42,979 nucleotides of DNA from a virus, in the IMG/VR virus record IMGVR_UViG_3300029619_000014, positions 1 to 42,979 of that record. One strand, written 5' to 3'. The notes under the pieces are model-generated. The model did no database searches, was not told the DNA's origin, and saw only the letters and a list, made by a program, of their open reading frames with translations. The position numbers and the translations under genes were made by a program. The first letter of the stretch is position 1; each line of letters starts with the position of its first letter. Of this stretch, positions 6,101-30,061 are shown piece after piece.

Positions 6101-9100
6101 CCTGTTTTCCTGCCTGTTATATACGCCTTGCTTCCCGGCGTCCAATTCTTTAAACCGCAGTTCAACGTTCCTCAGTCGTGGGTACACCTTGAACAGCTCG
6201 TCATGCTTTAGGAAGTCTCCCAGCCGCAGTCCGTCAGAAGTCTGTACACTGAACCTCCTTGCCCAATCAAGCGCCGCTACATAATCCGTGAACACATCGC
6301 CGTACTTTTCCGCGTTGCGCTCGTAAAGGCTGCGCATTTCCGCCTTGTCACCGCGAACCCTTGCAGAGTTGTACTTGCGCACGTCTTTCATTTCGTCGTC
6401 GCTCAGTGCCGCCGCCATATCAGCCTTTGCCGCGTCCAGATCTTCCAACGCCCATTTCCGGCTCGTTGCACCCTGTGCATCCCCGCTACTGTCATACTCT
6501 ATCCCGCTGTCGTCGATCTCGTATCGCCAGTCCTTGCCGTCCAGCGTCCGCGCTACGCCCAGCTCCATCCAAATCTCTTCCGGCGTTCTGCCCGCCGCCT
6601 CCATGCGCTCCGCTTCCGCTCGCACCTCGGCGTCCTTCAATTTTGCAAAGCTGTATCTCTCCGGCGGGCCTCTGGTCTGTGCCGGTTTTTTTGTGCGCTG
6701 GCTCGCGGTGCTGTCTGCGGCGGTGCGCACGGCATTCTGGAGCTTGTCCGCGCCCAAGCCCATGCGGTTGATCCCCGCGTAGGCGTCGCACACGATCTCG
6801 TCCAGATACGCGCTCAGGTCATCGCCTGTGTAGCAGCCCTCGTATGCCTCGCAGTATTTCCGTGCCAGCTTATCCCGCTGCTCCTGCGAAAGCCCCAGCG
6901 CGTCGATCAGGCGCTCCCGCAACCCCGATTCTGCTTCCAGCCGCAGGTGCATCGCCTCGTGCTCGGCGGTCTTGATAACGCCGTCCTTCGCGTCGATGGT
7001 GATCCATACGGTCGTTCCCTGTGTAACGCCCTGCACGCTCATCTCTCTGCCGCCTGCGGTCCTGATTCTGATCGACCCGCTCACAAGACGCACGTCGTCC
7101 GCGCCCGCATCGGTAAGGATTTGCTTCGCCTGCTTGAGTGCGGGATATTCCTGCACCATACCCTCCGGCACGCGGTAGAACATTTTCTGTTCCGAGCCGT
7201 TTTCGATCCCGTCCGCCTTTGGGCTTAACCGTTCCGCTTTCGCAGTGCCGAGGACACTTTGGATTCTAAGGCTTTCCTTGATGCCGAATCCGCCTGCGGA
7301 TTCTTTCTCTGCTCCTCCTGCGCCTCTGCCCACGCGTCCAGACGGCTCATCGGAATCCATACTTGCATCCCGTTCGCCGCCGTTACCAATACCCGCTGTT
7401 CCATTTTCTTCTCCTTTCCGCCTGCCTTCCTTGTAGGCTTCCTGCAATACCTCGTCCGCAATGCCCCTCTGAGAATCCTCACGCTTGAATTTCCAGCCGA
7501 ACCGTCCCTTCCCGTAGGCGACACGCACCGCCTCTGCATACGTCGGGATGTCCATCTGCACGCGGTCGTTTGCATCAAAATACCCGGAGATAAAGTATTG
7601 CGTCATCGCAAAGCCGTATTCGCGCTGCTTTGCGATCCGCTCCAGTTCCGCCGCGTCCTGCTCCTCTGCCGCTCTCCTTGCCGCAAGCTCGGCGGCGCTC
7701 TCCTGCGCCTGTGCGGACTGCTCTGTCTCGCGCAGCTCCTTGTCGGATAGGGTCTGCGTCTCGCGTCCCAACTCCTTCTGCTGCCGCTCGTTCTCCAGCC
7801 GCGCCCGCGCAACGTTCGCCACGTCCTGCATATCCCGCTCCTTCGCTTCCAGATATGCCTCGTCCTGCGCGAGCTGCTCCCGCAGCTCCCGTACCCGCGC
7901 ATTTATGGCTTCCCCTCGGGGGGAAGCTGTCGCCGTAGGCGACTGATGAGGGGAAGGCTCGTTATTTCTGACCTGCTGTGCGTTTGCTTCCAGCCCCCGC
8001 AGCTCCGCCGTCCGCGCATCGTACTGCTTTAGCCGCGCCTTATACTCGCGCAGCGTGTCCCCGACCTTGCCGAGCAGCTTGTCGCCCTTCACGCGCCCGC
8101 GTACATCCTCCTGCCCCGCCTGCCGTAAGACCGTCCGCACCTCCGGCTCGTTGTTTGCACGCTCCAAAGCCTCCCCTTGGTGACCAATGGGAGGTGGCGC
8201 GGAGCGCCGGAAGGGATCAGAACTACCCTCGTTCTGAGCTTCCGCCACGTCTGCCTCCAGCTCCATATTGTCCGGCAGCCCGTCCCCGTCCTCGTCGATC
8301 ACGTCCATATTGGACGGAATGTCGTCCTCCACGTCCATATTTTCCGGCACGTCACTCTCGCTTGCTTCCCGCTGTACCTCCTCCACGGTCCGCTCCGCCG
8401 CGTCGCTCTCTCCGGCTTTGTCCAGCGCGTCGATCAAGCGCCCGAAATCCTGCATATCCGGCGCGCGTCCGTATACCAGTTTGTCGCTGATCGTATCGCG
8501 CGCCGCCTGGACATCCGCGTTTGTGCTGCCGTCCGTCTCCCGGATCAGGATCTTCGCGTACTGCTTCATGTATCGGTCCTGCCGTGCCTGTGACAGCCCG
8601 CTCACCATCCCGGCAGCATCGCCCAGCACGCCGACGAATACGCCGCCGAGGAATGACAGCCCAAGGTCCTCCGCCGTCACTGACCCCTCCAGCGTCCCGT
8701 CCAGCACTAGGCTCTGGAACGTTGGCTCAAGCAGCTCCGCCACGACCTCCTCCAGACCCTCCGATACCAGCCCGAACGCCTTGCTGTCCAGCACCCGCAG
8801 GAGCGTCTTATTTTTCAGTTTCGCCGCCGCCCGGTTGATAAGACCCACGTCCTCGTCATACACCGGGTTTCCGCCGAACAGCTTTTCGGAGAATACTTCC
8901 ACGGCGGCGTTCTCCAAGCCGATCAAAATCGCCTCGCCGTCCGTCGCCCCTGCATTCTTCGCGTCCACCGCCGCGTTGCCGCCCGCTCTGGACGCCATGG
9001 ACGTCAGTGTGGATAGATTCGTCGTCTCTTTGATCGGATTCACGCCGCTCATCCCGGCAAGCCCCGCGTCCAAAAGCATCGACCCGACCGACGGCAGGTT

Positions 9101-10264
9101 CTCCACCACGAACTTCCCGACGTCGCTTCTGTCCTTCGTCGCCCGCTCCATAATGCGGCTGTACTCGTCCTGCCATGCCTGCGCGCCCGACCAGTCGATG
9201 TCTGTCGCCAGCTTGTCCGCCAGAGCGTTCAGGCTGTCCCGGTACGCCTGCCCGAAAATGCCGCCCAGCACCTTGCTCTTTGCAAGGTCACGCAGCGCCC
9301 ACGCCGCCGCCTTGTTGATTCCTGCTTCCGCGACCGCGTGCGTCGCCTCCTGACCGCCCAGCCACGACGCCGAGCTGCCGCTGATGAACGCATCCGCCGC
9401 CGCCTCGCCAAAGCCCACATAGTCCCCCGTGAGCTTTGGATTTTTCAGCAGTGCCCGGAAATCCGAAAGGTCCTTGCCGGTCACGCCCATCTCGTCGAAC
9501 CTCTGCCGCAGTGCGTCCTTTTCCTCCCGGTCCTCGTCAGCGTCCAGCTCAAAGTAGCGCGCCACGTCCTCCCGAATGCCCAGATTGTCCAGTCTGGCGT
9601 TCTGTGCCTGATAGCGCGTCTGCTCGTCTGTGGTGGTCGTTACGCCGTTCAGATAGTTTTGATACGTCCCGTATTTCTTCTGCATGGCAGTGGAGCGGTT
9701 GAACTCCTGCTCCGTTACCTTGCCTTCCCGCTGCGCCTGTTCCTGCTTCGCTCGGCGCGCATTTTCCATCGCCTCGTCGTACCCGGCGTACACGCCGCGC
9801 AAATAGTTCTGGTAGCTGCCGTATTTCTGCTGCATCGCCGTGGAGCGGTTAAATTCCTGTTCCGATACCTTGTCCGAGGAAAACCTGCCTCGCGGCGTTG
9901 CTTCCTGCTTCTGCCCCAGCTCTGCCCGGTACTGTTCCTCCGTCATCCCGCGCATCGCCCTGTACCGCTGCTGCGTGATGCTGTCCACCGCCGCCTTGTA
10001 CTGCTCAAACGTCACCCCGCCCTGCGCCTTGTACCGCTCCTGCGTCAGACTGTCCGAGCCTGCCTCCCCTTGGTGACCAAGGGGAGGTGGCGCGGAGCGC
10101 CGGAGGGGATCAGAACTATCCCCGCTCCGAGTTGTTGCCACATTCGCCGCCGGCGCGGCAGCCGCCCCGCTCTTGCGATAGCTGCCGCTCTGCTTATACT
10201 CCGTCCATTTGCCGGTCCTGCGCTCCTGCTCCTGCTGTTTTTTATACTCGCTCCATGCTCCCAT
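1..10264 (-). CDS. Giant virion-associated polyvalent protein: first 10264 nt of a 10290-nt ORF (3429 aa) that continues across the circular junction and stops at 42846-42848
   Basis: ATG at 10264-10262 preceded by GAAGGAGAA. Hand translation of the minus frame (codon first base = 1 mod 3) at several places gives clean protein (MGAWSEYKKQQEQERRTGKW..., GGVFVGVLGDAAGMVSGLSQAR, LIHEIQHAIQDIEGFPGG, ...YRAAGYMEKWND). The track lists no minus ORF in this frame between 1 and 10264, as expected if the frame is open to the window edge. The plus-strand ORFs here are L/R/V-rich antisense shadows. Confidence 0.85.
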   Translation of the reverse strand, partial: MGAWSEYKKQQEQERRTGKWTEYKQSGSYRKSGAAAAPAANVATTRSGDSSDPLRRSAPPPLGHQGEAGSDSLTQERYKAQGGVTFEQYKAAVDSITQQRYRAMRGMTEEQYRAELGQKQEATPRGRFSSDKVSEQEFNRSTAMQQKYGSYQNYLRGVYAGYDEAMENARRAKQEQAQREGKVTEQEFNRSTAMQKKYGTYQNYLNGVTTTTDEQTRYQAQNARLDNLGIREDVARYFELDADEDREEKDALRQRFDEMGVTGKDLSDFRALLKNPKLTGDYVGFGEAAADAFISGSSASWLGGQEATHAVAEAGINKAAAWALRDLAKSKVLGGIFGQAYRDSLNALADKLATDIDWSGAQAWQDEYSRIMERATKDRSDVGKFVVENLPSVGSMLLDAGLAGMSGVNPIKETTNLSTLTSMASRAGGNAAVDAKNAGATDGEAILIGLENAAVEVFSEKLFGGNPVYDEDVGLINRAAAKLKNKTLLRVLDSKAFGLVSEGLEEVVAELLEPTFQSLVLDGTLEGSVTAEDLGLSFLGGVFVGVLGDAAGMVSGLSQARQDRYMKQYAKILIRETDGSTNADVQAARDTISDKLVYGRAPDMQDFGRLIDALDKAGESDAAERTVEEVQREASESDVPENMDVEDDIPSNMDVIDEDGDGLPDNMELEADVAEAQNEGSSDPFRRSAPPPIGHQGEALERANNEPEVRTVLRQAGQEDVRGRVKGDKLLGKVGDTLREYKARLKQYDARTAELRGLEANAQQVRNNEPSPHQSPTATASPRGEAINARVRELREQLAQDEAYLEAKERDMQDVANVARARLENERQQKELGRETQTLSDKELRETEQSAQAQESAAELAARRAAEEQDAAELERIAKQREYGFAMTQYFISGYFDANDRVQMDIPTYAEAVRVAYGKGRFGWKFKREDSQRGIADEVLQEAYKEGRRKGEENGTAGIGNGGERDASMDSDEPSGRVGRGAGGAEKESAGGFGIKESLRIQSVLGTAKAERLSPKADGIENGSEQKMFYRVPEGMVQEYPALKQAKQILTDAGADDVRLVSGSIRIRTAGGREMSVQGVTQGTTVWITIDAKDGVIKTAEHEAMHLRLEAESGLRERLIDALGLSQEQRDKLARKYCEAYEGCYTGDDLSAYLDEIVCDAYAGINRMGLGADKLQNAVRTAADSTASQRTKKPAQTRGPPERYSFAKLKDAEVRAEAERMEAAGRTPEEIWMELGVARTLDGKDWRYEIDDSGIEYDSSGDAQGATSRKWALEDLDAAKADMAAALSDDEMKDVRKYNSARVRGDKAEMRSLYERNAEKYGDVFTDYVAALDWARRFSVQTSDGLRLGDFLKHDELFKVYPRLRNVELRFKELDAGKQGVYNRQENRITLDSSLRSAPENTLIHEIQHAIQDIEGFPGGASPEYWARREFESGDLVGERLQREYDKLLNSLPRNKQNKYIRYTELERELERLFLSDENSEDGRRYTKLEAEQDALYEELYPKQWFQSLLDLNRRMTDAPGEYRRMYNNTAGEIEARDATARRNMTAEQRRATMPKMADENTVFAEMSAAEYMVESQSIKGQIREHRQELANMETVASIQSPADIEKWDMNRTRQWVVEKLRPTGFKVERSGFGTIVIDEKRLNSSLDYLKLGDAEVGAYAALARVLKRGIEISGHENHKGRGYATVTIAAPIEIDGVRGNMAVVVKKTSKNFYKMHRVLAPDGTLLVLENKANAEFTSVGGVTEVANAPGEVAPTINSAFTNSLRPEGKNVNRKYSPETQERAPELTDADAPVLSEEEQQREIARELEESDEERNRLRNLQRTGRQYMKQVRDETVQKLTNPMSAAGWDLETKVRPEINKIIDEYIETGKVQKSTVEQAFETTYREAKQMNDEFARRYSEVLDVIKSRRIVLSDEQKQELQNATPEKAKVLARSLRDLKAMDFAKGAQPLYDVSRMYEKVRKMSPELFGSWAKESWEQITRLSSVSRQIMKATVLSEKMETAEFKEHAWDSFKAGVKEMLPEMRKARDYAQTYEREQAAAREEMLRREEETAREDAKRREEEEAAREAAEQEAFQPYDYDKLPGKARAFVDQAVNSAVRQAANAMSIPGKAKREVLKPAVQGMMNEFLKTGRIAQETIDKSFEDAYDAGIEEDREFYDTFKHIKVKLLKTGIRVTPEVRAEFADLEQFRRAVRGRILLNNEGIGIDTLYGELHDEAPGLFPEAIMNPADQLMRMIEVADKIQITKQTLDEAHKGDGGDYKRWARNDFEAAVEDMKASLRTARAWAESRERTKLAQEAPKSQAEVEELYKRQREARRAYERVQSKNLLTDEDERILDRLLRGELAPEDIQDRKNARSILNVYEAKADYAALTAQIARWRRGVKEGYREQVRPLLENTEQAKDKKGLAPGFRYDRETAERNIEDVFPAADAKRINETIFEPVHTQQAKSTRFKNDYRARVRKMNLSRKVKAGDVVSEAHAVQLYGEAMDNIRQLTKKPMDAKRDGKTLAEWEAVVRELWEKNPGISKEKVERAVGEFRKIYDELFTQMNDVRVRNGYEPIDYRRGYFPHFQPGQTDGVLAVMGKALGIKADVTALPTTINGLTHTFKPGITWFGNAKERLGFNTAYDAVEGFDKYIEGAADIVFQTDNIQRLRAFASEVRYRTSNEGVRERVDAIRADESISEQDKELRIKDLYENAKFELSGFAAWLDEYTNLLANKKSKLDRGVESVLGRKFYNAMNWLESRAAANMVAMNPGSWLTNFIPLTQAYGYISTGDMVQAMGKALAAMKNDDGFWERSAFLTNRRGSDPLVRTWQGNLSAKLSMPMERIDTFTADTIVRARYNQNLRRGMLEEDAMREADRFAANIMADRSKGATPTRFQAKNPFTKLFTQFQLEVNNQFSNIFKDLPREMRKRGLQALAWALFKMFFSAWAYNELYEKVVGRRAALDPIDMTNELVGDATGYKLNNVLDVAFGSEAGFIHEGKPAGFGNTVTHFLTSTAEELPLAGGVLGGGRVPFSSALPDVSAIWKAATNKELDSETKNAKLWEEVRDPLLYLGLPFGGGQIRKVAQGIYAVAKGGKFYRNNKGELQMQYPVFTDEGKWTVLRDVQAGVFGRNATKEARDWVQSGFSKLSTKETNAYLAMSAADVKQREAWKLIQAMQDVDVPEGVSKKDAKLEALRDYDISDEAKALYYYNVIASDTEREQLDAYMDVDQALADEKVQSAINNAEATAISEEEQAAKEARAERDRASKANYAQMYRKIRDLKLDGYEPIYKSQLKALKEQEGLSDSDARKEIQKGVIEEVKEAFQSGSIDEKLATRILSKNLNESEDDTYWMLEEWKGGPDYSKYGKLTDAMEQNTDAKETVQYYLSHGVQKRDISSQITRYFKPLYKAAETRQEKNEIARQANVFYRAAGYMEKWNDM
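7909..7970 (+). repeat. Two-hairpin element, copy D (inside giant ORF, in frame)
   Basis: CTTCCCC-TCGG-GGGGAAG (7909-7926), GTCGCC-GTA-GGCGAC (7929-7943), tail TGATGAGGGGAAGGCTCGTTATTTCTG; read on the minus strand as QVRNNEPSPHQSPTATASPRGEAIN. Confidence 0.85.
8170..8236 (+). repeat. Two-hairpin element, copy A (inside giant ORF, in frame)
   Basis: CCTCCCCTTGG-TGA-CCAATGGGAGG, GGCGC-GGA-GCGCC (8196-8208), tail GGAAGGGATCAGAACTACCCTCGTTCTG; encodes AQNEGSSDPFRRSAPPPIGHQGEALE. Confidence 0.85.
10063..10123 (+). repeat. Two-hairpin element, copy B (inside giant ORF, in frame)
   Basis: CCTCCCCTTGG-TGA-CCAAGGGGAGG, GGCGC-GGA-GCGCC (10089-10101), third hairpin GGGGAT-CAGAACT-ATCCCC; encodes SGDSSDPLRRSAPPPLGHQGEAGS. 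Confidence 0.85.
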
Positions 10265-17689: not shown

Positions 17690-17729
17690 TATTTCACGGG
17701 GTCTCCCCCGTCAAAGCCAATTTCCAAAG

Positions 17730-17782
17730 CCTTCCCCTTGAGGGGAAGGTGGCGCGAAGCGCCGGATGAGGAGAAGCGTTGT
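17730..17782 (+). repeat. Two-hairpin element, copy F (intergenic, between Prp and scaffold)
   Basis: CCTTCCCC-TTGA-GGGGAAGG (17730-17749), GGCGC-GAA-GCGCC (17751-17763), tail GGATGAGGAGAAGCGTTG. Confidence 0.85.
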
Positions 17783-17804
17783 ACATTCCGCGCTGTCGCC
17801 ACGT

Positions 17805-18119
17805 TTACTGCTCCCTCTCGAATCGCACATTCTGCGGATACTCATGCGCCACCATCTGCATTCCCAGCAGTGCCGTGTCCCACATCGCCCGCACCACCCG
17901 CTCACGCTTCGGCGCGCACGCAATGGTGATGTCTCCTGGCTGCATATCCACCACCGGCTCTGCCCGCAGCAGCCCCTCGCTTTCCGCTCTTAGGAGCATC
18001 CCGCCCAGCGCGTAGGAGAGGATCGTCACCGCCGCGCAGACAATATCCTGCCCCGCCGGAGCGTATCCCGCGTGCCCTGTGATCCGCAGGCTGTAGCCTT
18101 TACACTGGATGCTTATCAT
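17805..18119 (-). CDS. prp: Prp-like cysteine protease (ribosomal-processing protease family) for capsid/scaffold propeptide removal
   Basis: ITGHAGYAPAGQDIVCAAVTILSYAL carries the His/Cys dyad pattern of Prp (DUF464). The ATG at 18119 is preceded by GGAGGGG (the track starts at GTG 18125). Confidence 0.8.
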   Translation of the reverse strand: MISIQCKGYSLRITGHAGYAPAGQDIVCAAVTILSYALGGMLLRAESEGLLRAEPVVDMQPGDITIACAPKRERVVRAMWDTALLGMQMVAHEYPQNVRFEREQ

Positions 18120-18121
18120 GC

Positions 18122-20047
18122 TCACCCCTCCGGCTGTGACGCCTGCTGCGCCCTCTGCCGCGCGTTCGCGGTCACACTGCTCTCCTTCTCCCCGGTCTCA
18201 AGGCTCACATCCGTGTTTCCCTGCGGCACAGTCTGCCCCGCCCCGGAGAGGATCGCCTGCGCCAGCCCGTCCGCCTTTTCCGGCGCGTACTGCTGTACGA
18301 GCTGCAAGGCAAACTGCTGCCACTGCGCGAGCTGCTGCTGTAGATCTCCGTTTGCCCGGATCTTCTGCATCACCTCGTACTTGTCCTCAAAATCCATCAT
18401 GTCCAGGCACGCCATCGCCTGCGGCGCGAGCTGCGGGTTGAAGAATCCGAGATTGTAAAACTGCAAAGCCAATTCGTTCTGCGCAAGCTTTGTGTATTCC
18501 GTCTGCTTCTGCGCCGAAACAATGATGTCGAATACCGGCTTCCGCCCGCCTGCCTTTAGCCCCTCGTTGGAATACGTCACATACTCGTCCGCCCCCAGCG
18601 CCCCTGTGATGCGGAATCTGCGCGGCAGGTCATAAAACTGCCGGATGCGCTCGATCACCATTCCGATCATCCGCCGGTACGCGCGGTACGCGCTCTTCGT
18701 CGCGTCCTTGCTGCTCCTGCCGGAGGCTTCCTGCAAGGCTGCGATCGCTGACGCAGCGGTCACGCCGCCGCCCGCCGAGCCGTTGTTGACGTCCGTGTTG
18801 CCCGTCACCCACTTGAGCTCCTCGATCTTGCTCGCCCGCATCTCCAGATAATTCCCGCTCAGAGGATTCACCACGATCTGCGCCAGCGAATCCTGCCCCA
18901 GATTGCCGTCGGTGTGTACAAACGGCTTTGTCCAGTCGGCAAATTCCTTCTCGTTGATCGCGGCGTCGCTTCGCGCGAACCATCGCGGGCTCGCCGCCAT
19001 GATCGTATTTTTGACGATTGCCTGATCCATGCGGTCGATCTGCTCCTGCGCGCTCTTGCCGATGTCGATATAGCCGTAGCCGCAGATGCTCCCTTTCACC
19101 GGGAACAGCGCGTCGAATACGAACGGATACTCGCCATCGGTGTAAAACCCGACCTCGGCAGGCGCTTGCGCAATGGGCACGTCCAGCACCGTCCCGTCCG
19201 CCTGCGGCATCTGCATCACGGGCGGCTGCGTGTCGTTTTCCGACGCATACAGCACCTCGTCGCCGCAAAACTTGCAGTAGTGCAAAAGCGTTTTTCCGCC
19301 CACGCGCTTTTTGTAATACCACTCCACCACCAGCGCCTGCTCGCCTCTCTGCTGGTCGTCGTCTGTTTTATACTGCGCCAGCGTCAGCGCGCTCCCCTTG
19401 AGCTTGCCCTCCAGCTGCGGATACCGGCTCACAAGGTCGCTCTTGTCATACGCCCGGACGAAAAAGACGTTTTGCGAATCCTGAATGTCTTTAATGCCCG
19501 GCTGCCAAAAGATGTTGAGCACGTCCACGCCGCAGATCGCCACGTCGCCCAAGCCACCTAGCTTGCTGCTGTCCCATAAAACGGACCAAATGAGCGTCCC
19601 CGACTGCACCTTGTCCCACAGCGTATCGCTGTATACCTGCTCAAAATCGTTGTGCTCCAAAATGCACGGCACGATCTGACTGAGCATCCGCGCCTCCAGC
19701 GCGTCCGTCTGCTCGCGCGGTCGTAGGTTTGCCTCCGGGTATGCCTGGATGCCGTCCGCGTGCTTACCCATCAGGACGTTAAACAGCCACCCGCTCGCAG
19801 GTCGGTCGTCGCGGGGATTGCCCTTTTCGTCAAACTGTCCCCACTGCCGCAGCTTCCACCACTCGTTGTTGGCGATCACGCGGTTTTCAAGCTGCGTCTT
19901 GCCGCTCTTGTACTGGATCAGCGTCTGCATCGCCGTGCGCACCTGCTCCGCCCCGATCGGCTGCACCTGCGCCTCCCGCAAAACTTCCTCCACCTGCGTT
20001 ACCTGTTCGTTCTCTCCCATTTCATCCTCCATGCTTTTCCGCCCCAT
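18122..20047 (-). CDS. Portal protein (641 aa)
   Basis: Large ORF immediately downstream of TerL, with portal-like size and sequence character. Confidence 0.88.
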   Translation of the reverse strand: MGRKSMEDEMGENEQVTQVEEVLREAQVQPIGAEQVRTAMQTLIQYKSGKTQLENRVIANNEWWKLRQWGQFDEKGNPRDDRPASGWLFNVLMGKHADGIQAYPEANLRPREQTDALEARMLSQIVPCILEHNDFEQVYSDTLWDKVQSGTLIWSVLWDSSKLGGLGDVAICGVDVLNIFWQPGIKDIQDSQNVFFVRAYDKSDLVSRYPQLEGKLKGSALTLAQYKTDDDQQRGEQALVVEWYYKKRVGGKTLLHYCKFCGDEVLYASENDTQPPVMQMPQADGTVLDVPIAQAPAEVGFYTDGEYPFVFDALFPVKGSICGYGYIDIGKSAQEQIDRMDQAIVKNTIMAASPRWFARSDAAINEKEFADWTKPFVHTDGNLGQDSLAQIVVNPLSGNYLEMRASKIEELKWVTGNTDVNNGSAGGGVTAASAIAALQEASGRSSKDATKSAYRAYRRMIGMVIERIRQFYDLPRRFRITGALGADEYVTYSNEGLKAGGRKPVFDIIVSAQKQTEYTKLAQNELALQFYNLGFFNPQLAPQAMACLDMMDFEDKYEVMQKIRANGDLQQQLAQWQQFALQLVQQYAPEKADGLAQAILSGAGQTVPQGNTDVSLETGEKESSVTANARQRAQQASQPEG

Positions 20048-20083
20048 ATCTCCCCGTGTTGGAAGCTATCGCCGCACCCCTTG

Positions 20084-20145
20084 CCTTCCCCTCGGGGGGG
20101 AAGGTGGCGCGAAGCGCCGGATGAGGGGAAGGGTCGTTGTTTCTG
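20084..20145 (+). repeat. Two-hairpin element, copy G (intergenic, between TerL and portal)
   Basis: CCTTCCCC-TCGGG-GGGGAAGG (20084-20104), GGCGC-GAA-GCGCC (20106-20118), tail GGATGAGGGGAAGGGTCGTTGTTTCTG. Confidence 0.85.
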
Positions 20146-20163
20146 GGCTGTTCCGCGTTTGCG

Positions 20164-21516
20164 CTATCCCCCAAACTGATCCAGCGGGTCGTTGAGCAGC
20201 ACCCGCCGCGCCACCGGGCGCATCGCCTTGATCGGTCGGCTCATGCAAAAATACCGTACCTCGTCGCACGCATGATCCTCCATCGTCGTATCCAGATCCT
20301 CGACGTGCGTCTTGGAGTACATCATCATCGGCATCGTGCGGATAATGGCGTCGCAGCCCTTGAAAAAATACATCCGCGCGTAGCCGCCCTCGTCAAATTG
20401 CAGCCGGTAATGCACTTGCATCCAGCCAGATATCCGGGCGTTGTCGCCCTTGGAAAAGTACACCCCGTACCGCGCCGCCGTCTGCGCGATGCTCTCGCCG
20501 TGCGACGCGTCCCAGATCGCGGGGTCTGCCACGCCCTGTATCTCCTTGCCCCGCAGCCACGGGTGTTCCCGCTCTGTCCTGCGTATCTCCTCAAACTGCC
20601 GGTCCGGCGACCACTTTACGCCCTCGTTCGGCTCGCCTGTCCAGCCGTAAAGCTCCAGAATGCGGTACAGCACGCCGTCGTAATCCACCGCCCACCACGC
20701 GCAGGAAAACGGCTTTCCGTAGCCGAAATCGTAGCTCCTGTAGATTCTCCATCCCGCGTCCGGCTCAAACGGCGCGATGACGTGCGTAAATCGCCTGTCC
20801 TCGTAGTGCGCCGGGTCGTCGCGGAACTCCTCGAAGAACTGCCCCTCGAATACGTCCCAGCGCCCTTCCAGCCACGCCGCCCGCTGCGCCGGCGGCAGGC
20901 TCTTGAGGTTGCTCAAATACTCCGGCTGCGCCTCCATCAGCGCCTTGTTGTCCGTCACCAGCGCCTGGATAAAGCTGTAGTCCTCCGGGTTTTCCCTGCC
21001 CTCAAAGCGCCGGTCAACGAAAAGCCGCTTGAAATACCCGTGGCTCGGACCGCCGGGGTTGAGCGTGTAATACGTCCGCTTCGGAAAAATGTTCACGCCG
21101 CGCACCGTGGCGTTGATAAGCCTGATCCACTGCTCCTGGAGCTGCCCCGCCTCGTCGAAGAAGATCACGTCGTATTCCTGCCCCTGATACTGCGCCACAT
21201 CGCCGTCATTGCGGCAGTACCCAAGCATTATTCGCGACCCATTGCCAAATGTGAACACTTTGCTCGTCTGGTTGTATTGCGCCACGCCGTGCAAAAGCTG
21301 CATCAGCGGCAGCACATGGTTGTTATACAGCTCCGGGTACGTCTTGCGCACAATGAGCACCTTGATTCCCGCCCATGCGCCGCAGAGTAAAAACGCCTTG
21401 ATGCGCACCGCCCAGCTCTTCCCACCGCCGCGCGCGCCGCCGTATGCCACATGGCGGTGCGTGTCCGTCAAAAACTGCCGCTGCTTGTCGCTGGGATTGA
21501 TCTTGATCGTCCTCAT
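20164..21516 (-). CDS. terL: Terminase large subunit
   Basis: Walker A-like VAYGGARGGGKSWA near the N-terminus; acidic nuclease-half motifs; overlaps the TerS stop. Confidence 0.92.
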   Translation of the reverse strand: MRTIKINPSDKQRQFLTDTHRHVAYGGARGGGKSWAVRIKAFLLCGAWAGIKVLIVRKTYPELYNNHVLPLMQLLHGVAQYNQTSKVFTFGNGSRIMLGYCRNDGDVAQYQGQEYDVIFFDEAGQLQEQWIRLINATVRGVNIFPKRTYYTLNPGGPSHGYFKRLFVDRRFEGRENPEDYSFIQALVTDNKALMEAQPEYLSNLKSLPPAQRAAWLEGRWDVFEGQFFEEFRDDPAHYEDRRFTHVIAPFEPDAGWRIYRSYDFGYGKPFSCAWWAVDYDGVLYRILELYGWTGEPNEGVKWSPDRQFEEIRRTEREHPWLRGKEIQGVADPAIWDASHGESIAQTAARYGVYFSKGDNARISGWMQVHYRLQFDEGGYARMYFFKGCDAIIRTMPMMMYSKTHVEDLDTTMEDHACDEVRYFCMSRPIKAMRPVARRVLLNDPLDQFGG

Positions 21517-25904: not shown

Positions 25905-25906
25905 GC

Positions 25907-26032: not shown

Positions 26033-26388
26033 TCGTCATCCTCCTCCGGCAAGGGCGGTAGCTCCGCCCAAAACGTGCCCAGCAAGTCCTTCGGGCGTAT
26101 AACCTCCGCCTTCGTATGCGCTTCGTTCGGCACAACCCAGACGCCGTCCGTCGCATAAAACGCCTTGTAAATGCGCCCGTCTGCCAAAAGTGCCACACAC
26201 CGCCCGTCCTGCGGTACTCCCTCGCTGTCGGGTGTCCAGTGCTTTTCCTGCAATTTCTTTTGCAGCTTTCCGATCATCGCCCGCATCGTTTCATTGCCGA
26301 CTGCCAGGTGTTCGATCAAATTCGCCGCCGCGAAAAATTCCTCGCTCCCGCTGCTCCGCAGTGCCTTTACAATCTCTTTTTCAGTCAT
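26020..26388 (-). CDS. Hypothetical protein (122 aa, [14 protein letters not shown]...)
   Basis: The ATG at 26388 overlaps the dcm stop (ATGA). Confidence 0.62.
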
Positions 26389-27335
26389 AGGGTTTCTTCC
26401 TCCATTTCTTCCCGCAGCGCCCGGAATATCGGATACGCCTGCTGCGGCACTACCGCATTTCCGAGGCATTTAAGTCTGTCCACCCGATAGGGAATCCCAT
26501 GAGCCACTCGACCCACGTCGGGTTCAGTTGCCCAGCAACGTCCGTCCGCAAGCTCCTGTGATTGTTCCCGCCGTGCGACCCCTGTGCATCTTCCGCGCAC
26601 GGTGTCGTAAACAATTTTTTCATCGCCACGGCCTGCGTCAGATTGCATTTCCCCGGATTTTTCATTCTGCTCGGCGGCACAGACTGCAGCCTGTCCTTGT
26701 ACTCGTTCGCCCGCGGTGTCTGCCATAGTCCACTCCGAATCAGTACCTGCGCCCCAAGATGCGTGCTTTTCTCCGGCGGTCTTCCGCGCGTCACCGCAGT
26801 CATGCCGCACTGCCCCGCCGTCGGCGTCGGCCACATCCGCGATTCCGACGAAGAATACTCTCGATCTACGGTGCCAAGCTCCGACAGCCGCAGCTTCAAA
26901 ATTAAACACGACGACGTGATAGCCAGCACGCTCCAGATCCTTGACCACCTGCCCGGCGGCAATCTTGATGATTCCAGGTACGTTCTCACCAACAACGAAA
27001 TGCGGGCGCAGTTCGTCGATAACTCGCAGCATCTCCGGCCAGAGGTAACGAGCGTCTTCTTTTCCCTTTTGCTTTCCAGCCACGGAAAAGGGCTGGCAGG
27101 GGAATCCGCCGGAAATAACGTCAACTGTTCGTAGTCCTGTCCGCTCATAAAAACTCTCCTTCGTCAGCGTCTGGACGTCGCGCCAGCGCGGCACGTCCGG
27201 CCAGTGCTTCTCCAGCACCTTTGTAGGGTAGTCGGCAAACTCGCACTGCCCGACGGTCGTAAAGCCCGCCCACTCGGCAGCCAGATCAAGCCCGCCGATC
27301 CCGGAAAACAGGCTCAGATGGGTAAGCTCCCTCAC
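26385..27335 (-). CDS. dcm: DNA (cytosine-5) methyltransferase, frame A (316 aa; GTG start)
   Basis: Motif I LFSGIGG, motif [11 protein letters not shown], motif VI VGENV, motif [15 protein letters not shown]-terminal motif X LGNAVVPQ. The central ~130 codons are A/D/G/R-rich and lack a recognisable TRD or motif IX. Confidence 0.85.
26450..27148 (-). CDS. Nested ORF in a second frame of dcm (232 aa) carrying WPTP/WQTP repeats and a motif-IX-like [11 protein letters not shown]
   Basis: AAGGAGAGTTTTT-ATG (own SD) at 27148. Product ...MWPTPTAGQ...LWQTPRANE...[14 protein letters not shown]...[21 protein letters not shown] looks like the missing TRD/motif IX region of the methyltransferase. Confidence 0.5.
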
Positions 27336-27535: not shown

Positions 27536-27680
27536 CGTCCGTTCCCTCCCAATATAGGCACACCGGGATGCTCTCCCGGTGCTCCGCCGCCAGATGGCAG
27601 AATGCCCCGACGCCGCGCTGCGCGCAGTTGCGGCAGCCGTCATACCCGTCCGGCACGAGCCACCCGTTCACGTCCTTCAT
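27480..27680 (-). CDS. Hypothetical protein (66 aa, MKDVNGWLVPDGYDGCRNC...)
   Basis: The ATG overlaps the upstream TGA. Confidence 0.45.
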   Translation of the reverse strand: MKDVNGWLVPDGYDGCRNCAQRGVGAFCHLAAEHRESIPVCLYWEGTDDEMPMQEELREAQRDVPA

Positions 27681-27916
27681 GCTCTGCACCGCCTCGCCGT
27701 GCACGCGCCGTAGCTGTCTACCCTGCGCCAGTCCAGTCCCCAGTGCTCCAGCGCCGCCTTGATCGCCGCCTGCGGGCTGGGGGCGCGAACGCGCAGGACT
27801 GTGCTCCCGCGCGTCACCCACCATTCTGCCTTGCCCTTGTACTCCCCGGCACAAACAGTGTTCTCCTGCCGGCGGAAGCCGCCCGCCTGATACCCGACGA
27901 TCATTCTGTCCACCAT
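27677..27916 (-). CDS. Hypothetical protein (79 aa)
   Basis: GGGAGG RBS before the ATG at 27916; the longer form in the track (to 28195) overlaps the 3D gene and looks spurious. Confidence 0.5.
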   Translation of the reverse strand: MVDRMIVGYQAGGFRRQENTVCAGEYKGKAEWWVTRGSTVLRVRAPSPQAAIKAALEHWGLDWRRVDSYGACTARRCRA

Positions 27917-28536
27917 ACCGTCGCCTCCCGCACGCCCAGCTTCAGAGCCTCCTCGTGCGTCTGCACGGCAAGGTCGATGTGCCCGCCCAGCACGGCGCTG
28001 CCCGTGTCCTCTGCAATGTAGCTGTGCAGCACGCCGTCGCCGTAGTCCACAAAAATCTCCGCCCCCAGCGGGATCACGTTGGGATCGACTGCCGCCGACC
28101 GCCCCGCCGTCACGTCTGTGCCCGTCGCGGTCTTGCCCGTCCCGCCGCCGCAGATGTGCGGACGCTTTTCGCAGCAGTAGTATGTAACCGTGCACTCCCG
28201 GAGCACGCCATCGAACCCGCGCAGCTCGTCCAGATCGTTCCGCCCCGTCTCCGGGTATTCATTTTCCAGCAGCACGATCTCATACTCCAGCTCCCGCGCG
28301 CCCCTGCCCGCTCCTGTAGGGGCGGACGCCTCTGTCCGCCCGTCGGCTTCCCCCTTGAGGGGGAAGCTGTCAGCCGTAGGCTGACTGATGAGGGTGGAGT
28401 TCTCTTCTCTGATCTGCTTCGCGTTTGCCGCCGCCCGCGCCGTCCCCAGCACCAGCAGCTCAAGCACCGCCAGCGCCAGCACCACCATCAGCACAAACTC
28501 GCCGACCACCCGCAGCGTCTCACGTCTCTTTCCCAT
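27901..28536 (-). CDS. Membrane-anchored 3D-domain (MltA/RlpA-like double-psi beta-barrel) cell-wall protein (211 aa)
   Basis: N-terminal TM VVGEFVLMVVLALAVLELLVLG; C-terminal ...TATGTDVTAGRSAAVDPNVIPLGAEIFVDYGDGVLHSYIAEDTGSAVLGGHIDL is the 3D-domain pattern; AAGGAGA RBS. Confidence 0.75.
   Translation of the reverse strand: MGKRRETLRVVGEFVLMVVLALAVLELLVLGTARAAANAKQIREENSTLISQPTADSFPLKGEADGRTEASAPTGAGRGARELEYEIVLLENEYPETGRNDLDELRGFDGVLRECTVTYYCCEKRPHICGGGTGKTATGTDVTAGRSAAVDPNVIPLGAEIFVDYGDGVLHSYIAEDTGSAVLGGHIDLAVQTHEEALKLGVREATVWWTE
28347..28399 (+). repeat. Two-hairpin element, copy E (in frame in the linker of the 3D-domain protein)
   Basis: CTTCCCCC-TTGA-GGGGGAAG (28347-28366), GTCAGCC-GTA-GGCTGAC (28369-28385), tail TGATGAGGGTGGAG; encodes LISQPTADSFPLKGEADG. 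Confidence 0.85.
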
Positions 28537-28547
28537 CGTTCTCTCCT

Positions 28548-29075
28548 TTACTCCACGATCGCCAGCAGCAGCCTCCGCAGCTTGTCTGTCCCCGTCTCCG
28601 GCGCGATCAGCCCCACCAGCATAAACCCCGCCTTCGCCGCGATCAGCTCCCGGCATCCCGCCGGAGCGCGCAGCGTCAGCTCCACGTTTTCATATTCCGC
28701 AAGGATCGGCGCGAGCAGCGCCCTGTCTGCCCAGCGTACCCCGACGCCCGGCACGACCAGCGGCATCAGCTCCCGACCCATGTAGTTCACGCTCACGCTC
28801 TTCCGCACAGCAGCTTTTTCTCCGTCTGCCGTGTCCAAAAAGCAGATAGAGGGCGGCGCTTCCCGCTCCCGAATGCGCATGGCGTCCTTCTGCTTGTCGT
28901 TCAGCTCCAGCAGGCTCGGCAGATTCTCCGCCCGCAAATGCGGCAGCCCCTCCACCGGGTACAGTGCCCGCCCGTCCGTGATCCACTGCTGCACGCACCC
29001 GGCGCGATCCGTGTAGTTCACCAGCTCTGCCCAGCCCTCCTGCTTGCAGAGCTGCGCGATCTTCTTGATCTTCAT
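28548..29075 (-). CDS. Hypothetical protein (175 aa, MKIKKIAQLCKQEGW...)
   Basis: The ATG at 29075 overlaps the upstream stop (ATGA); the 320-aa form in the track has a non-protein-like N-terminus. Confidence 0.62.
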   Translation of the reverse strand: MKIKKIAQLCKQEGWAELVNYTDRAGCVQQWITDGRALYPVEGLPHLRAENLPSLLELNDKQKDAMRIREREAPPSICFLDTADGEKAAVRKSVSVNYMGRELMPLVVPGVGVRWADRALLAPILAEYENVELTLRAPAGCRELIAAKAGFMLVGLIAPETGTDKLRRLLLAIVE

Positions 29076-29353: not shown

Positions 29354-29367
29354 CTTGATTTCTCCTT

Positions 29368-29607: not shown

Positions 29608-29623
29608 TTCCGTCTCTCCCCCC

Positions 29624-30061
29624 TCACCAATTCACACACAATTCAAAGTCCGTGACCTCGAACCCATCCGCACCATCCCCGGCTTCCCGCCCATAGGCTC
29701 CCCTTGGTGACCAAGTGGAGCTGGCGCTGGAAGCGCCTGATGGGATCAGAGCCTCCCCGCTTGCAGCCGCTTCCGCGTTCGCACCCTCGTCCAGATAGTT
29801 CCTCCCGAACTCCCGCACAAAGTCCGCAGTGCTCCATCCCATCCTCTCCATCGCCATCCGCTGCCCGTATTCGTGCAGCGCCTGCGCCGTTTCGCGGCAG
29901 CGGTGTGCCGCCCGCTTACCGCTGATGTGGCAGCTCCCGTGGCAAAGATCCACCACCAGCCCGAGCTGCTCGCTCTTTCGCCGGTTCGCCCCGCCGAAAA
30001 TGTGGTGACGGTCCAAAGGCTCATCCGCCCCGTTCTTCCCGCATAGCCAGCACGTCCGCAT
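29624..30061 (-). CDS. HNH-like zinc-finger nuclease-type protein (145 aa)
   Basis: CWLCGK...LDRHHIFGGANRRKSE...LCHGSCH pattern. Confidence 0.6.
   Translation of the reverse strand: MRTCWLCGKNGADEPLDRHHIFGGANRRKSEQLGLVVDLCHGSCHISGKRAAHRCRETAQALHEYGQRMAMERMGWSTADFVREFGRNYLDEGANAEAAASGEALIPSGASSASSTWSPRGAYGREAGDGADGFEVTDFELCVNW
29698..29758 (+). repeat. Two-hairpin element, copy C (in frame near the C-terminus of the HNH-like protein)
   Basis: CTCCCCTTGG-TGA-CCAAGTGGAG (29698-29720), GGCGC-TGGAA-GCGCC (29723-29737), tail TGATGGGATCAGAGCCTCCCC; encodes EALIPSGASSASSTWSPRGAYG. Confidence 0.85.

Follow-up and report, generated by a model that had tools for sequence, protein, structure and literature searches.

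A putative hairpin-bridged intrastrand DNA triplex repeat present in seven same-orientation copies in a phage genome

The BoxC/PIT elements of E. coli and other Proteobacteria are reportedly class II intrastrand triplex repeats, an account attributed to Hoyne et al. in 2000. Rickettsia palindromic elements (RPEs) are selfish DNA lying in frame within protein-coding genes; they are longer than the repeat described here and Rickettsia-restricted, and we know of no description of them as triplex motifs. Single strands of TMECO form stable triplexes in vitro, as judged by CD and NMR (Holder 2015, PMC4666352), and folding of the classical motif in vivo was not detected by Holder et al. (PMC4666352). 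RNA does not form purine-motif triplexes, and pyrimidine-type intrastrand triplexes can form in RNA (PMC4666352). TMECO has been reported from Proteobacteria alone and not from mobile elements (phages, plasmids), and it is always intergenic and without strand bias; TM loci are unusually rearranged, and PIT elements showed no promoter or terminator activity (PMC4666352). The class is limited to stems of 6-15 nt with at most one mismatch and to third arms with at most one mismatch at stems of at least 7 nt, and the published searches restricted loops to 1-6 nt (ITxF) or 0-10 nt (Hoyne) (PMC4666352).

We analyzed a 42,979-nt stretch of viral DNA (IMG/VR record IMGVR_UViG_3300029619_000014), referred to in full as the window, whose + strand carries all seven copies (c1-c7) of a repeat. 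A covariance model of the seven copies, run on both strands of the window with no filters, returned exactly seven matches (63.9-88.2 bits, E 1e-17 to 1e-24), all on the + strand; the best non-member in the same search scored 10.4 bits (E 0.11). The seven-copy repeat is far above chance. The first-pass annotation had likewise reported seven copies in one orientation, and its left ends agreed with our alignment to within 1-2 nt. Its length of ~50-65 nt had to be revised, as the conserved unit is ~95 nt and runs on the + strand ~40 nt past the end given there, through ...TTCTG.GCTG...CGCGTTTGC. The copies and their surroundings are given below, with Y and R denoting the pyrimidine and purine arms of hairpin 1, T the linker, scores in bits from the covariance model, and the fit of the mirror arm as triplet-compatible positions.

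7904..8000, + strand: c1, type 1 (82.2 bits), inside the giant ORF at ~aa 756-787; Y 7908-7915 GCTTCCCC, loop 7916-7919, R 7920-7927 GGGGAAGC, T 7928, hairpin 2 7929-7943 (GTCGCC gta GGCGAC), mirror (reverse-Hoogsteen) arm 7944-7953 TGATGAGGGG, 7/8 ungapped and 8/8 with a TG bulge; the extension to ~8000 is lineage-specific
8165..8267, + strand: c2, type 2, slightly decayed (86.7 bits), inside the giant ORF at ~aa 667-700; Y 8170-8179 CCTCCCCTTG, R 8185-8194 CAATGGGAGG (one hairpin mismatch), T 8195, hairpin 2 8196-8208 (GGCGC gga GCGCC), mirror arm 8209-8218 GGAAGGGATC, 7/10
10058..10160, + strand: c3, type 2 (80.9 bits), inside the giant ORF at ~aa 36-69; Y 10063-10072, R 10078-10087 CAAGGGGAGG, T 10088, hairpin 2 10089-10101, mirror arm 10102-10111 GGAGGGGATC, 9/10
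17726..17821, + strand: c4, type 1 (87.4 bits), intergenic, between the Prp protease gene (17805-18125), whose stop codon its extension overlaps, and the next gene (start 17605); Y 17730-17737 CCTTCCCC, R 17742-17749 GGGGAAGG, T 17750, hairpin 2 17751-17763, mirror arm 17764-17771 GGATGAGG, 7/8
20080..20175, + strand: c5, type 1 (88.2 bits), intergenic, with the large terminase gene (stop 20164) on one side and the portal gene (start 20047) on the other; Y 20084-20091, R 20097-20104 GGGGAAGG, T 20105, hairpin 2 20106-20118, mirror arm 20119-20128 GGATGAGGGG, 7/8 ungapped and 8/8 with a TG bulge
28344..28441, + strand: c6, type 1 (63.9 bits), in the 251-aa 3D-domain ORF at ~aa 73-105, within the linker that follows the membrane anchor; Y 28346-28354 GCTTCCCCC, R 28359-28367 GGGGGAAGC, T 28368, hairpin 2 28369-28385 (GTCAGCC gta GGCTGAC), mirror arm 28386-28394 TGATGAGGG, 8/9
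29692..29795, + strand: c7, type 2, slightly decayed (78.4 bits), in the 145-aa ORF at ~aa 90-124; Y 29697-29705 GCTCCCCTT, R 29713-29721 AAGTGGAGC, T 29722, hairpin 2 29723-29737, mirror arm 29738-29746 TGATGGGAT, 7/9
1..10264, - strand: giant polyvalent-type ORF of 3,429 aa with an LPD23 domain, holding c1-c3
27901..28656, - strand: 3D-domain protein (Pfam 3D domain, E 2e-13), host of c6
29624..30061, - strand: small Cys/His-rich protein (ORF and alignment with homologues), host of c7
28301..28345, + strand: separate REP-like unit adjoining c6, GTAGGGG C GGACG cctc TGTCC GCCC (GTAG head, then hairpin)

All seven copies share one order on a single strand: a 5' pyrimidine arm, a purine arm, hairpin 2 and a 3' purine tail. 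Alignment bore out the hairpin sequences and the purine tail described in the first-pass annotation. Hairpin 1 is CTTCCCC/GGGGAAG or CCTCCCCTTG/CAAGGGGAGG, with stems of 8-10 bp and one mismatch each in c2 and c7, and hairpin 2 is GGCGC/GCGCC, GTCGCC/GGCGAC or GTCAGCC/GGCTGAC. Loop 1 of the window copies measures 4-7 nt and loop 2, itself a hairpin, 14-18 nt. The tail is a mirror repeat (reversed, uncomplemented) of the 3' purine arm of hairpin 1. An extra direct GGGGAAGG repeat is confined to some type 1 copies, and the tail of c2 has an alternative pairing partner in the downstream ACCCTCGTTC. When each core was folded as single-stranded DNA with ViennaRNA, which does not model triplets, the minimum-energy fold consisted of two adjacent hairpins and a free tail (z -3.1 to -6.0).

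The mirror relation between arm and tail was also found across the wider family. A scan blind to the tail yielded 581 candidates. In 51 of them the mirror tail was triplet-compatible throughout; 2,000 permutations gave 4.3 such cases on average and 11 at most, and these controls leave relatedness among copies in place. Perfect direct repeats numbered 13, most of them self-mirror sequences; the switch that had been read from a tail repeating the 3' arm gave way to a mirror. Over dozens of variants, in phages and in at least five bacterial phyla or classes, the tail co-varies with the purine arm, and different R arms each carry their own mirror tail (GGGGGAGA/AGAGGGGG, GAGGGGGC/TGGGGGAG, GGAGGAGC/TGAGGTGG, AAGGGAGC/TGAGGGAT and CAAGGGGAGG/GGAGGGGATC). 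An R-arm C corresponds to a tail T, and an R-arm A to a tail A or T, which are triplets permitted in the purine motif. The c7 orthologue at L040:8770, AAGGGGAGC with tail TGAGGGGAT, can be read as 9/9 triplet-compatible and as a perfect mirror. Class II intrastrand triplexes of the purine motif are marked by just such a mirror tail, co-varying with the purine arm.

Hairpin 2 was examined in 107 family members, where 97.7% of cells were paired and every pair showed changes on both sides (0 of 500 shuffles reached the observed values), so that the covariation proposed in the first-pass annotation was upheld; hairpin 2 is a pure scaffold of free sequence. Wobble counts in the family were 37 G·T to 1 A·C, and this ratio places the folding constraint on the G-rich strand. 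In the phage the G-rich (+) strand of the repeat is antisense to every gene, and the constraint on that strand therefore argues for DNA, not mRNA. Linker lengths were bimodal, falling at 2-3 nt (the classical type) and at 11-27 nt, and this distribution ties the hairpin type to the classical one.

Like BoxC/PIT/TMECO, the family has the one-strand order pyrimidine arm, loop, purine arm, turn and mirror purine arm, the triplets G•GC, A•AT and T•AT, G/C-rich arms of 8-10 nt, and multiple copies, at times as inverted doublets, tied to locally rearranged DNA; the TMECO arms CCCTCTCCC/GGGAGAGGG/GGGTGAGGG occur in some family members. The window copies do not match the consensus of TMECO proper, CCCTCNCCC N3-6 GGGNGAGGG N3 GGGNGAGGG; their arms are CCTTCCCC/GGGGAAGG/GGATGAGG or CCTCCCCTTG/CAAGGGGAGG/GGAGGGGATC, and a hairpin occupies the N3 position. 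The family is also phage- and plasmid-borne with a wider host range than that reported for TMECO, and in the window five of seven copies fall within genes and all point the same way. As for class II membership, the arm order was found in 7/7 copies, the hairpin 1 arms are Watson-Crick paired, and third arms had at most one mismatch in c1 and c3-c6 and more in c2 and c7. Loop 1 fits the short-loop limit; the second loop does not, being in the family a covarying hairpin of 13-27 nt instead of 3 nt and beyond both published loop limits. That limit is an operational one for searching, not a physical definition, and the element is filed as a class II variant. H-DNA shares the purine-tract mirror symmetry, the possible reverse-Hoogsteen purine-motif pairing and a repute for replication stalling and recombination, but it arises from duplex DNA bearing a mirror repeat and leaves half of one strand unpaired, whereas in the present repeat all three arms, and the extra hairpin that connects them, belong to one strand.

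The seven copies are probably DNA-level repeats of the class II (purine-motif) intrastrand triplex type, with a putative fold in which a hairpin replaces the second loop. On the G-rich (+) strand the pyrimidine and purine arms would pair as hairpin 1, and the linker T with a second hairpin of arbitrary sequence, standing in for the 3-nt second loop of the BoxC/PIT/TMECO motif, would turn the chain round. Running antiparallel, the mirror purine arm could then occupy the hairpin 1 major groove and form G•G-C, A•A-T, T•A-T and T•C-G triplets. Such a triplex would presumably be transient, arising on unwinding of the G-rich strand, and might block replication or draw repair, creating polar hot spots of template switching, gene conversion and illegitimate recombination. 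Recombination at the copies could in turn spread and homogenize the element and make module boundaries in the phage genome. Against the triplex, a fit in type 1 copies requires either one mismatch or a bulge of 2 nt, and c2 (7/10) and c7 (7/9) are decayed.

We also examined the location of the copies. Five of the seven (c1-c3, c6 and c7) lie in frame within minus-strand ORFs and two (c4 and c5) are intergenic; the in-frame position and the tie to the known intrastrand-triplex class had both escaped the first-pass annotation. The minus frame of the giant ORF is free of stops from 10309 to 1, crosses the contig end and resumes at 42871, with a stop codon at 42846-42848; a 108-nt terminal repeat shows that the contig ends join, and the ORF reads through circularly. 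Alignment with relatives placed c6 in a variable linker of the 3D-domain protein. Most of a C-terminal extension of the 145-aa ORF consists of c7, and homologues of this Cys/His-rich protein stop after ~90-120 aa, without the element. Orientation was single in 7/7 window copies and in 12/12 distinct sites of the lineage; a constraint on RNA or on coding could also produce such uniformity. The G-rich strand is always the transcription template in this phage lineage, and the element persists in ORFs only where the C-rich sense strand is open and the ~30 extra residues land in linkers or tails. RPEs behave alike, as small palindromic repeats kept in frame in ORFs that add peptide in permissive protein regions, and here too homologues free of the insert exist at the c6 (L166) and c7 (L169-L172) sites; the two share no sequence relationship, and the likeness is one of behavior, not homology.

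Family members were identified on phages and plasmids and in Clostridia, Rhizobiales, Caulobacterales, Xanthomonadales, Planctomycetes and Acidobacteria, in agreement with the suggestion of a widespread miniature element of hosts and phages. In bacteria and in other phages the element takes either orientation and also forms inverted pairs, and bacterial copies are mostly intergenic, with 24/70 in long open frames versus ~80% of random positions. At the c6 site the relative L165 carries a type 2 element and L166 none; at the c7 site L167 carries a type 1 element; and the relative L042 lacks c3, with homology stopping 5 nt left of c3. The GTAG REP-like unit adjoining c6 is also inserted beside the element in L003 (near its c2 copy) and in L168 (c7 site), and GTAG-plus-hairpin units of similar kind flank family members in Clostridia genomes. 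Variable segments began <100 nt from an element in 7/13 cases against 0.8 expected (0/5,000 placements reached 7) and ended near one in only 1/13, a polar association with mosaic breakpoints in statistics drawn from partial sequences of two related contigs (three stretches), one event being common to both contigs. The phage copies occupy gene interiors and the borders of exchanged modules, a placement suggestive of a three-stranded DNA fold that promotes the shuffling of phage genomes.

Several of these observations bear on readings at the RNA level. A structured RNA in polycistronic mRNAs, serving as a two-hairpin processing, stability or translation signal or as an alternative-pairing switch, would account for the single orientation of all copies relative to transcription, the presence of both hairpins in the mRNA sense, the covariation of hairpin 2 and the alternative Watson-Crick partners that types 1 and 2 give the tail or 5' arm. 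We consider it unlikely, because the G·T to A·C ratio indicates that the complementary, non-mRNA strand is kept foldable, a Watson-Crick switch has no use for mirror, as opposed to direct, repetition of the arm, the five copies inside ORFs (three in a single ORF) are placed where cleavage or termination would do harm, and elsewhere the element occurs in both orientations and inverted pairs. The cmsearch against Rfam that the first-pass annotation had suggested, run with Rfam 15 and covering Clostridiales-1 among the rest, gave no gathering-level match either in the window or in the 12 bacterial loci searched, none of the promoter-like or terminator-like sites in the window coincided with a copy, and the inactivity of PIT elements as promoters or terminators (PMC4666352) points the same way; no sign of gene regulation by the element was seen. 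With the constrained strand antisense to all genes, the initial leaning towards a riboswitch, ribozyme or mRNA signal lost ground. The best sub-threshold Rfam match was RF01762 whalefall-1 (19.1 bits against a gathering threshold of 37, same strand, at c1), whose consensus shares the layout, with a CUCUCC/GGAGAG hairpin, a 23-nt spacer and an AGGGUGAGG tail that by our own reading is a near-mirror of its stem arm; at that score the element is not a member, and the family is filed as an RNA of one metagenome. A small self-cleaving ribozyme, for example hammerhead-like, might be seen in the C(U/G)GAUGAG after hairpin 2 on the + strand, given CUGAUGA after a helix, yet hammerhead, twister, pistol, hatchet and HDV-like families did not match even at E up to 10, and a GAAA, stem III and cleavage-site layout could not be drawn. 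The 'GAUGA' shifts to GAGGGG, GAAGGG or GAGAGG along with hairpin 1, as suits a mirror arm and not a catalytic core; this co-change and the lack of an Rfam ribozyme match contradict the reading, which we regard as extremely improbable. A pyrimidine-motif (class IV) triplex of the C-rich strand, as mRNA or DNA, would set the 5' CCCCTCATCC arm alongside the hairpin 1 purine arm in parallel orientation, held by C+•G-C and U/T•A-T triplets. A G/C-rich class II motif entails class III or IV on the other strand, and the C-rich strand is here the mRNA sense, in which a pyrimidine-type triplex can form; nevertheless 6-8 of 8-10 triplets would need protonated cytosines, unfavorable at cellular pH, and the wobbles are G·T on the opposite strand. 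By the triplet rules, the recurrent A-to-T and C-to-T matches would be legitimate in the purine motif only, amounting on the C-rich strand to an A opposite A-T or an inverted pair, and we judge class IV very unlikely.

Mobilization by a protein is a rather unlikely primary explanation, although it and the triplex are compatible and not exclusive. A REP/REPIN- or MITE-like miniature element, with its hairpins and flanking bases recognized by a host or phage transposase (HUH-type or other) and its mirror arm serving protein recognition in place of a triplex, would fit the multiple copies, the presence/absence and subtype polymorphism at fixed sites, the GTAG-plus-hairpin REP-like units adjoining several copies, and the inverted doublets in bacteria, as in REPINs; the one-strand folding constraint would also suit transposases acting on single-stranded DNA. 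REP, BIME and REPIN elements are likewise short, palindromic, multi-copy, mostly intergenic in bacteria and found in mosaics with small repeats. REP/REPIN elements are defined by a conserved head tetranucleotide, a palindrome of conserved sequence and an associated RAYT gene. Hairpin 2 here is free in sequence even within one genome, unlike transposase-bound hairpins, and the mirror arm that defines the family is absent from REPs. No target-site duplication was visible at swapped or empty sites, and no transposase, RAYT or Y1/HUH gene was found among the 20 window ORFs scanned. One architecture built from many arm sequences across phyla suggests a physical fold, not the specificity of one protein. 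Selection at the protein level for a repeated peptide module (linker or protease site), with the DNA likeness as a by-product, is hardly credible: five copies are translated in frame and the extension encodes Ala-Asn-Ala/Val in 5/5, but the core is read in differing frames (...PSPHQSPTATASPRGEA, ...DPLRRSAPPPLGHQGEA, ...LIPSGASSASSTWSPRGAY), which practically refutes this reading, two copies and most bacterial ones are intergenic, and the stems covary through non-synonymous changes.

Taken together, the hairpin-bridged triplex reading describes the element as probably a selfish, recombinogenic non-B DNA repeat and not a riboswitch or ribozyme, and the evidence favors two of the roles first put forward, a recombination hotspot and a REP/MITE-like selfish element. 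We raise as a tentative possibility that hairpin-bridged triplex repeats form an unrecognized cross-phylum class of non-B DNA whose three-stranded fold is itself selected, and that in phages they act as polar, structure-triggered hot spots of template switching or gene conversion setting module boundaries. If this were true, evolution would for the first time have proved, through the mirror covariation, the in vivo importance of such a fold, and the hot spots would provide a physical mechanism of phage mosaicism, acting even within genes.

An exact 108-nt terminal direct repeat (1-108 = 42872-42979) identifies the window as a complete phage contig that can be closed into a circle and holds 42,871 nt of unique sequence. 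Its G+C content is ~60%, its GC skew is negative throughout, and its minus-strand genes include those for the small and large terminase, portal (P22-like), Prp protease, capsid, tail fibre, C5 methylase, amidase and a 3D-domain protein. A stop-free minus-strand frame runs from 10309 to 1, passes the contig junction and ends at the stop codon at 42846-42848; the giant ORF in this frame (10264 down to 1, then 42871 down to 42846) was missed by ordinary ORF listing because it runs off the contig end. Its 3,429-aa product carries an LPD23 domain and HExxH motifs and is thus a polyvalent-type giant phage protein. The same ORF contains an 81-nt direct repeat (9642-9722 and 9792-9872, 81% identity), unrelated to the element studied here, which encodes the duplicated peptide motif (E)QEFNRSTAMQ(Q/K)KYG(S/T)YQNYL.

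Alignment of the seven segments reported in the first-pass annotation revealed a common architecture, which reads 5' to 3' on the plus strand as a pyrimidine arm, loop and purine arm (hairpin 1), a linker, hairpin 2 and a purine tail. The two-hairpin description was essentially right; the proposed length of ~50-65 nt was too short, as the conserved unit spans ~95 nt. An unfiltered search of the 42,979-nt window, covering both strands, with a covariance model built from the seven copies recovered exactly these seven, all on the plus strand, with scores of 63.9-88.2 bits (runner-up in the window, 10.4 bits), confirming that the copies are real and lie on one strand. Only two of the seven are intergenic.

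Table. Copies of the element in the window (c1-c7, left to right). The bulge that gives c1 and c5 8/8 is the TG of GGA-TG-AGGGG looped out.
c1: 7904-8000, plus strand, type 1; post-mirror extension 7955-8000; triplet-compatible 7/8 ungapped, 8/8 with bulge; in frame within the giant ORF
c2: 8165-8267, plus strand, type 2; post-mirror extension 8220-8267; triplet-compatible 7/10, decayed; in frame within the giant ORF
c3: 10058-10160, plus strand, type 2; post-mirror extension 10113-10160; triplet-compatible 9/10; in frame within the giant ORF
c4: 17726-17821, plus strand, type 1; post-mirror extension 17773-17821; triplet-compatible 7/8 ungapped; intergenic, between Prp and the next gene
c5: 20080-20175, plus strand, type 1; post-mirror extension 20130-20175; triplet-compatible 7/8 ungapped, 8/8 with bulge; intergenic, between terminase and portal
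c6: 28344-28441, plus strand, type 1; post-mirror extension 28396-28441; triplet-compatible 8/9; in frame within the 3D-domain ORF
c7: 29692-29795, plus strand, type 2; post-mirror extension 29748-29795; triplet-compatible 7/9, decayed; in frame near the end of a 145-aa ORF

Hairpin 1 is CCTTCCCC/GGGGAAGG in type 1 and CCTCCCCTTG/CAAGGGGAGG in type 2, and hairpin 2 keeps its pairing while its sequence varies among the seven copies. Single-stranded DNA folding of each core gave two neighbouring hairpins and an unpaired purine tail (z -3.1 to -6.0). For type 2, an alternative pairing of the tail with a downstream ATCCCCGCTCC-like stretch is possible. The ~40-nt extension 3' of the mirror arm reads ...TTCTG.GCTG...CGCGTTTGC on the plus strand and GCAAACGCGG... 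in the gene sense, where each of the five intragenic copies translates it as Ala-Asn-Ala/Val. Its conservation is confined to this phage lineage, in which extension and core are exchanged jointly.

Comparison of subfamilies revealed that the conserved 3' tail is the hairpin 1 purine arm reversed, not complemented, and that the tail changes whenever the arm changes. The arm/tail pairs include GGGGGAGA/AGAGGGGG, GAGGGGGC/TGGGGGAG, GGAGGAGC/TGAGGTGG, AAGGGAGC/TGAGGGAT, GGGAGAAGG/GGATGAGGG and CAAGGGGAGG/GGAGGGGATC. The alphaproteobacterial form, GGGAGAAGG/GGATGAGGG, is a perfect mirror with nine triplets, and type 1 of Clostridia and phages looks like this form minus one hairpin 1 step. The c7 orthologue in L040, a stretch from a relative of the phage, has AAGGGGAGC with the tail TGAGGGGAT, which we read as a perfect mirror. 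The mirror was also measured in a structural scan blind to the tail (hairpin 1, a 1-3-nt linker and a perfect hairpin 2), which yielded 581 distinct candidates with G-rich arms, none picked by a tail-containing pattern. Allowing G opposite G, A opposite A, T opposite A and T opposite C, a complete mirror tail was present in 51 of the 581, compared with 4.3 on average and at most 11 when tails were permuted among candidates (2,000 permutations). The first-pass annotation had taken the tail for a direct repeat of the hairpin 1 3' arm, forming a switch; perfect direct repeats occurred in only 13 candidates, most of which have self-mirror arms. A mirror repeat cannot be obtained by duplication or by inversion; among known structures, it is a requirement of an antiparallel purine-motif triple helix.

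We also examined which strand is under constraint. Over 107 cross-phylum members hairpin 2 was 97.7% paired, with two-sided changes at all five modelled pairs, and none of 500 shuffles reached the observed values, the alignment of the 107 being model-fitted; the covariation noted for hairpin 2 in the first-pass annotation is thus borne out. On the purine-tail strand, 702 of the hairpin 2 pairs counted are Watson-Crick, 37 are G·T and 1 is A·C (binomial P = 3e-10), some G·T pairs being recurrent at one position, so that the 37 do not equal 37 independent events. The balance of G·T versus A·C nevertheless points unambiguously to the G-rich strand as the one whose folding is preserved. Apparent U·G cells in hairpin 1 (alignment A5, columns 7/34 and 16/27; 43/107 and 40/107) are probably not true wobbles and reflect a register shift between the 9-bp alphaproteobacterial and 8-bp Clostridia stems. 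In the window the G-rich strand is the plus strand, antisense to every gene. The same orientation was found for all seven copies and for five further non-orthologous sites in relatives (L003:3144, 5791, 8805 and 8864; L040:1199), and by our arithmetic 12 of 12 sites in one orientation has a two-sided probability of ~5e-4. Purine-motif triplexes are not formed by RNA (PMC4666352). Taken together, strand constraint, orientation and this property of RNA point to a DNA-level structure.

Readings at the level of RNA or protein fared poorly. The switch-like arrangement of the first-pass annotation and an RNA-level role are not supported, since the foldable strand is antisense to the genes and the tail is a mirror. 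Among Rfam families, nothing reached the gathering threshold in the window or at 12 bacterial loci, and with E up to 10 the only match was sub-threshold, to the whalefall-1 'sRNA' RF01762 (window 7906-7959, plus strand). Hammerhead (types I-III) and K-turn folds were drawn by hand around C(U/G)GAUGA and dropped because 'GAUGA' covaries with hairpin 1 and required parts are absent, namely the GAAA / stem III / cleavage-site arrangement and an opposite-strand GA. Sequestration of a Shine-Dalgarno sequence was rejected, since the true one of the portal gene is located ~30 nt further downstream than c5 and the copies are mostly intragenic. Neither translational bypass nor a tiny intron is called for, as the frames are open through the element and leave nothing to skip, and a peptide repeat is rejected since the core is read in frames that differ from copy to copy. 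Promoter and terminator scans of the window remained at chance level, with no promoter-like or terminator-like site coinciding with a copy, and no evidence for a regulatory role of the element was found. A literature search by literal element sequence returned primer noise only.

Intrastrand triplex repeats have been known since 2000 and have no assigned function. Class II motifs have the order 5' pyrimidine arm, purine arm and reverse-Hoogsteen arm 3' (PMC4666352), which is exactly the arm order of the element here. The Escherichia coli representative is BoxC, also described as the PIT element (Hoyne/Maher 2000) and TMECO, with the pattern CCCTCNCCC N3-6 GGGNGAGGG N3 GGGNGAGGG; its single strand folds in vitro into a stable triplex, folding in vivo was undetectable, promoter and terminator activity were absent, and its loci show an unusual degree of rearrangement between strains (PMC4666352). 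TMECO is always intergenic, lacks strand bias and was absent from the phages, plasmids and transposons examined (PMC4666352); in contrast, the element here is phage-borne, intragenic, uniformly oriented and tied to mosaic boundaries. Published searches for intrastrand triplexes used loop ceilings of 6 nt and 10 nt, and Holder et al. 2015 mention neither Rhizobiales, Clostridia nor hairpin loops, and phages only in a negative statement (PMC4666352). Among 196 distinct elements with hairpin 1 and a perfect mirror arm, connector length was bimodal (2-3 nt and 11-27 nt), and 124 of 169 long connectors form a hairpin with at least four Watson-Crick pairs. The bimodality and the hairpins of the long connectors argue that the element very probably belongs to the class II intrastrand triplex DNA repeats, as a new variant bridged by a hairpin, the triplex itself being predicted. 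Whalefall-1 shares this layout, with its CUCUCC/GGAGAG hairpin, spacer of 23 nt and AGGGUGAGG tail, and RF01762 may be a hairpin-bridged DNA triplex repeat and not an RNA gene.

Further copies, sought in related genomes, were found in close relatives and beyond. Two close IMG/VR contigs (3300029231_000022 and 3300045988_041287) share the element sites of the window and have additional ones, in remoter gut viral contigs the copies are diverged and some of them form adjacent inverted pairs, and in GenBank phages the element occurred only in fragments from human faecal viromes. A core-pattern scan of one genome per species returned at least 120 stretches, the matches listed including Rhizobiales, Caulobacterales, Xanthomonadales, Planctomycetes, Acidobacteria and Clostridia (Oscillospiraceae, Gemmiger, Pseudoflavonifractor and Ruminococcus). 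On plasmids and secondary replicons the element is multi-copy and almost never lies under an annotated gene; BLAST detected as many as 26 places in a single Shinella replicon, and the PLSDB annotation of a rhizobial match was empty. Bacterial copies are mainly intergenic, with 24 of 70 in open frames of at least 150 codons versus ~80% of random positions, a coarse contrast because open-frame classification is noisy in high-GC DNA, where both strands are often open. Many alphaproteobacterial copies form convergent or divergent inverted doublets (e.g. L148, L088, L161 and L043) in which the GGATGAGGGG arm can pair with the partner's CCCCTCATCC to give a palindrome of ~150 nt, resembling the inverted TMECO pairs of E. 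coli.

Within the phage lineage, sites were found both empty and swapped. Remoter homologues of the two small ORFs that host c6 and c7 lack the element: it is absent from L166 at the c6 site, while at the c7 site L172 ends at ...GKNYL and L169-171 have an unrelated short tail. Among close relatives, the c6 site holds type 1 in the window and L164 and type 2 in L165, and the c7 site holds type 2 in the window and L168 and type 1 in L167. The swap comprises exactly the ~95-nt unit with conserved flanks, and no target-site duplication was visible at swapped or empty sites. Comparison of the window with three stretches of relatives on two contigs (L003, L040 and L042) showed collinear homology interrupted by 13 variable segments, seven of which start with an element in either genome, 5-98 nt right of the left breakpoint; one event is common to L003 and L042, giving 6 of 12 independent events. 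Random placement gave 0.8 such segments, and none of 5,000 placements reached seven. An element lay near the right breakpoint in only one of the 13. In the gene direction the element marks the downstream end of exchangeable modules. Relatives swap whole internal modules of the giant ORF, e.g. window 4028-6650 for ~0.7 kb.

Other small repeats were observed beside the element. The c2 orthologue in L003 (~5515-5590) has a nested palindromic insertion of ~75 nt (...CAGACAGCCCGGTGGGCTGTCTG...) within the hairpin 1 3' arm, which destroys hairpin 1 of that copy. A second, REP-like repeat (GTAGGGGCGGACGCCTCTGTCCGCCC), in which a GTAG head precedes a GC-rich hairpin, adjoins triplex elements and also lies within ORFs; it was found beside the element at window 28301-28345, at L003 ~5420-5450 and just past the c7-site element of L168, and in the flanks of the Clostridia matches L063, L078, L083 and L092.

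A mechanism can be proposed in which the G-rich strand, once unwound, would fold into the triplex and stall replication or recruit repair, as has been proposed for H-DNA and TMECO (PMC4666352). Template switching or gene conversion between copies would then spread the element and make junctions on one side. With uniform orientation, the strand able to form the triplex would never be the non-template strand and probably not the lagging-strand template either; a polar copying process could also be all that the orientation reflects. We give this recombinogenic, selfish mechanism about an even chance; class assignment and mechanism combined make a likely account. The phage also encodes a C-5 cytosine DNA methylase (26385-27335, minus strand), and cytosine methylation could alter the stability of structures in C/G-rich repeats.

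The covariation of arm and mirror arm across phyla provides evolutionary evidence for a maintained triplex geometry, where earlier in vivo folding could not be demonstrated. A large hairpin-connector family was missed by published searches because only short loops were allowed, and many spurious small ORFs of high-GC genomes probably derive from it. If the element is merely a tolerated selfish repeat, its value would be for annotation, as a sequence to be masked and not taken for riboswitches or peptide repeats. Phage mosaicism has otherwise been explained by random illegitimate recombination or by conserved linker sequences; in this lineage, elements that lie within genes and mark exchanged modules at their polar edge would offer a concrete, testable cause.
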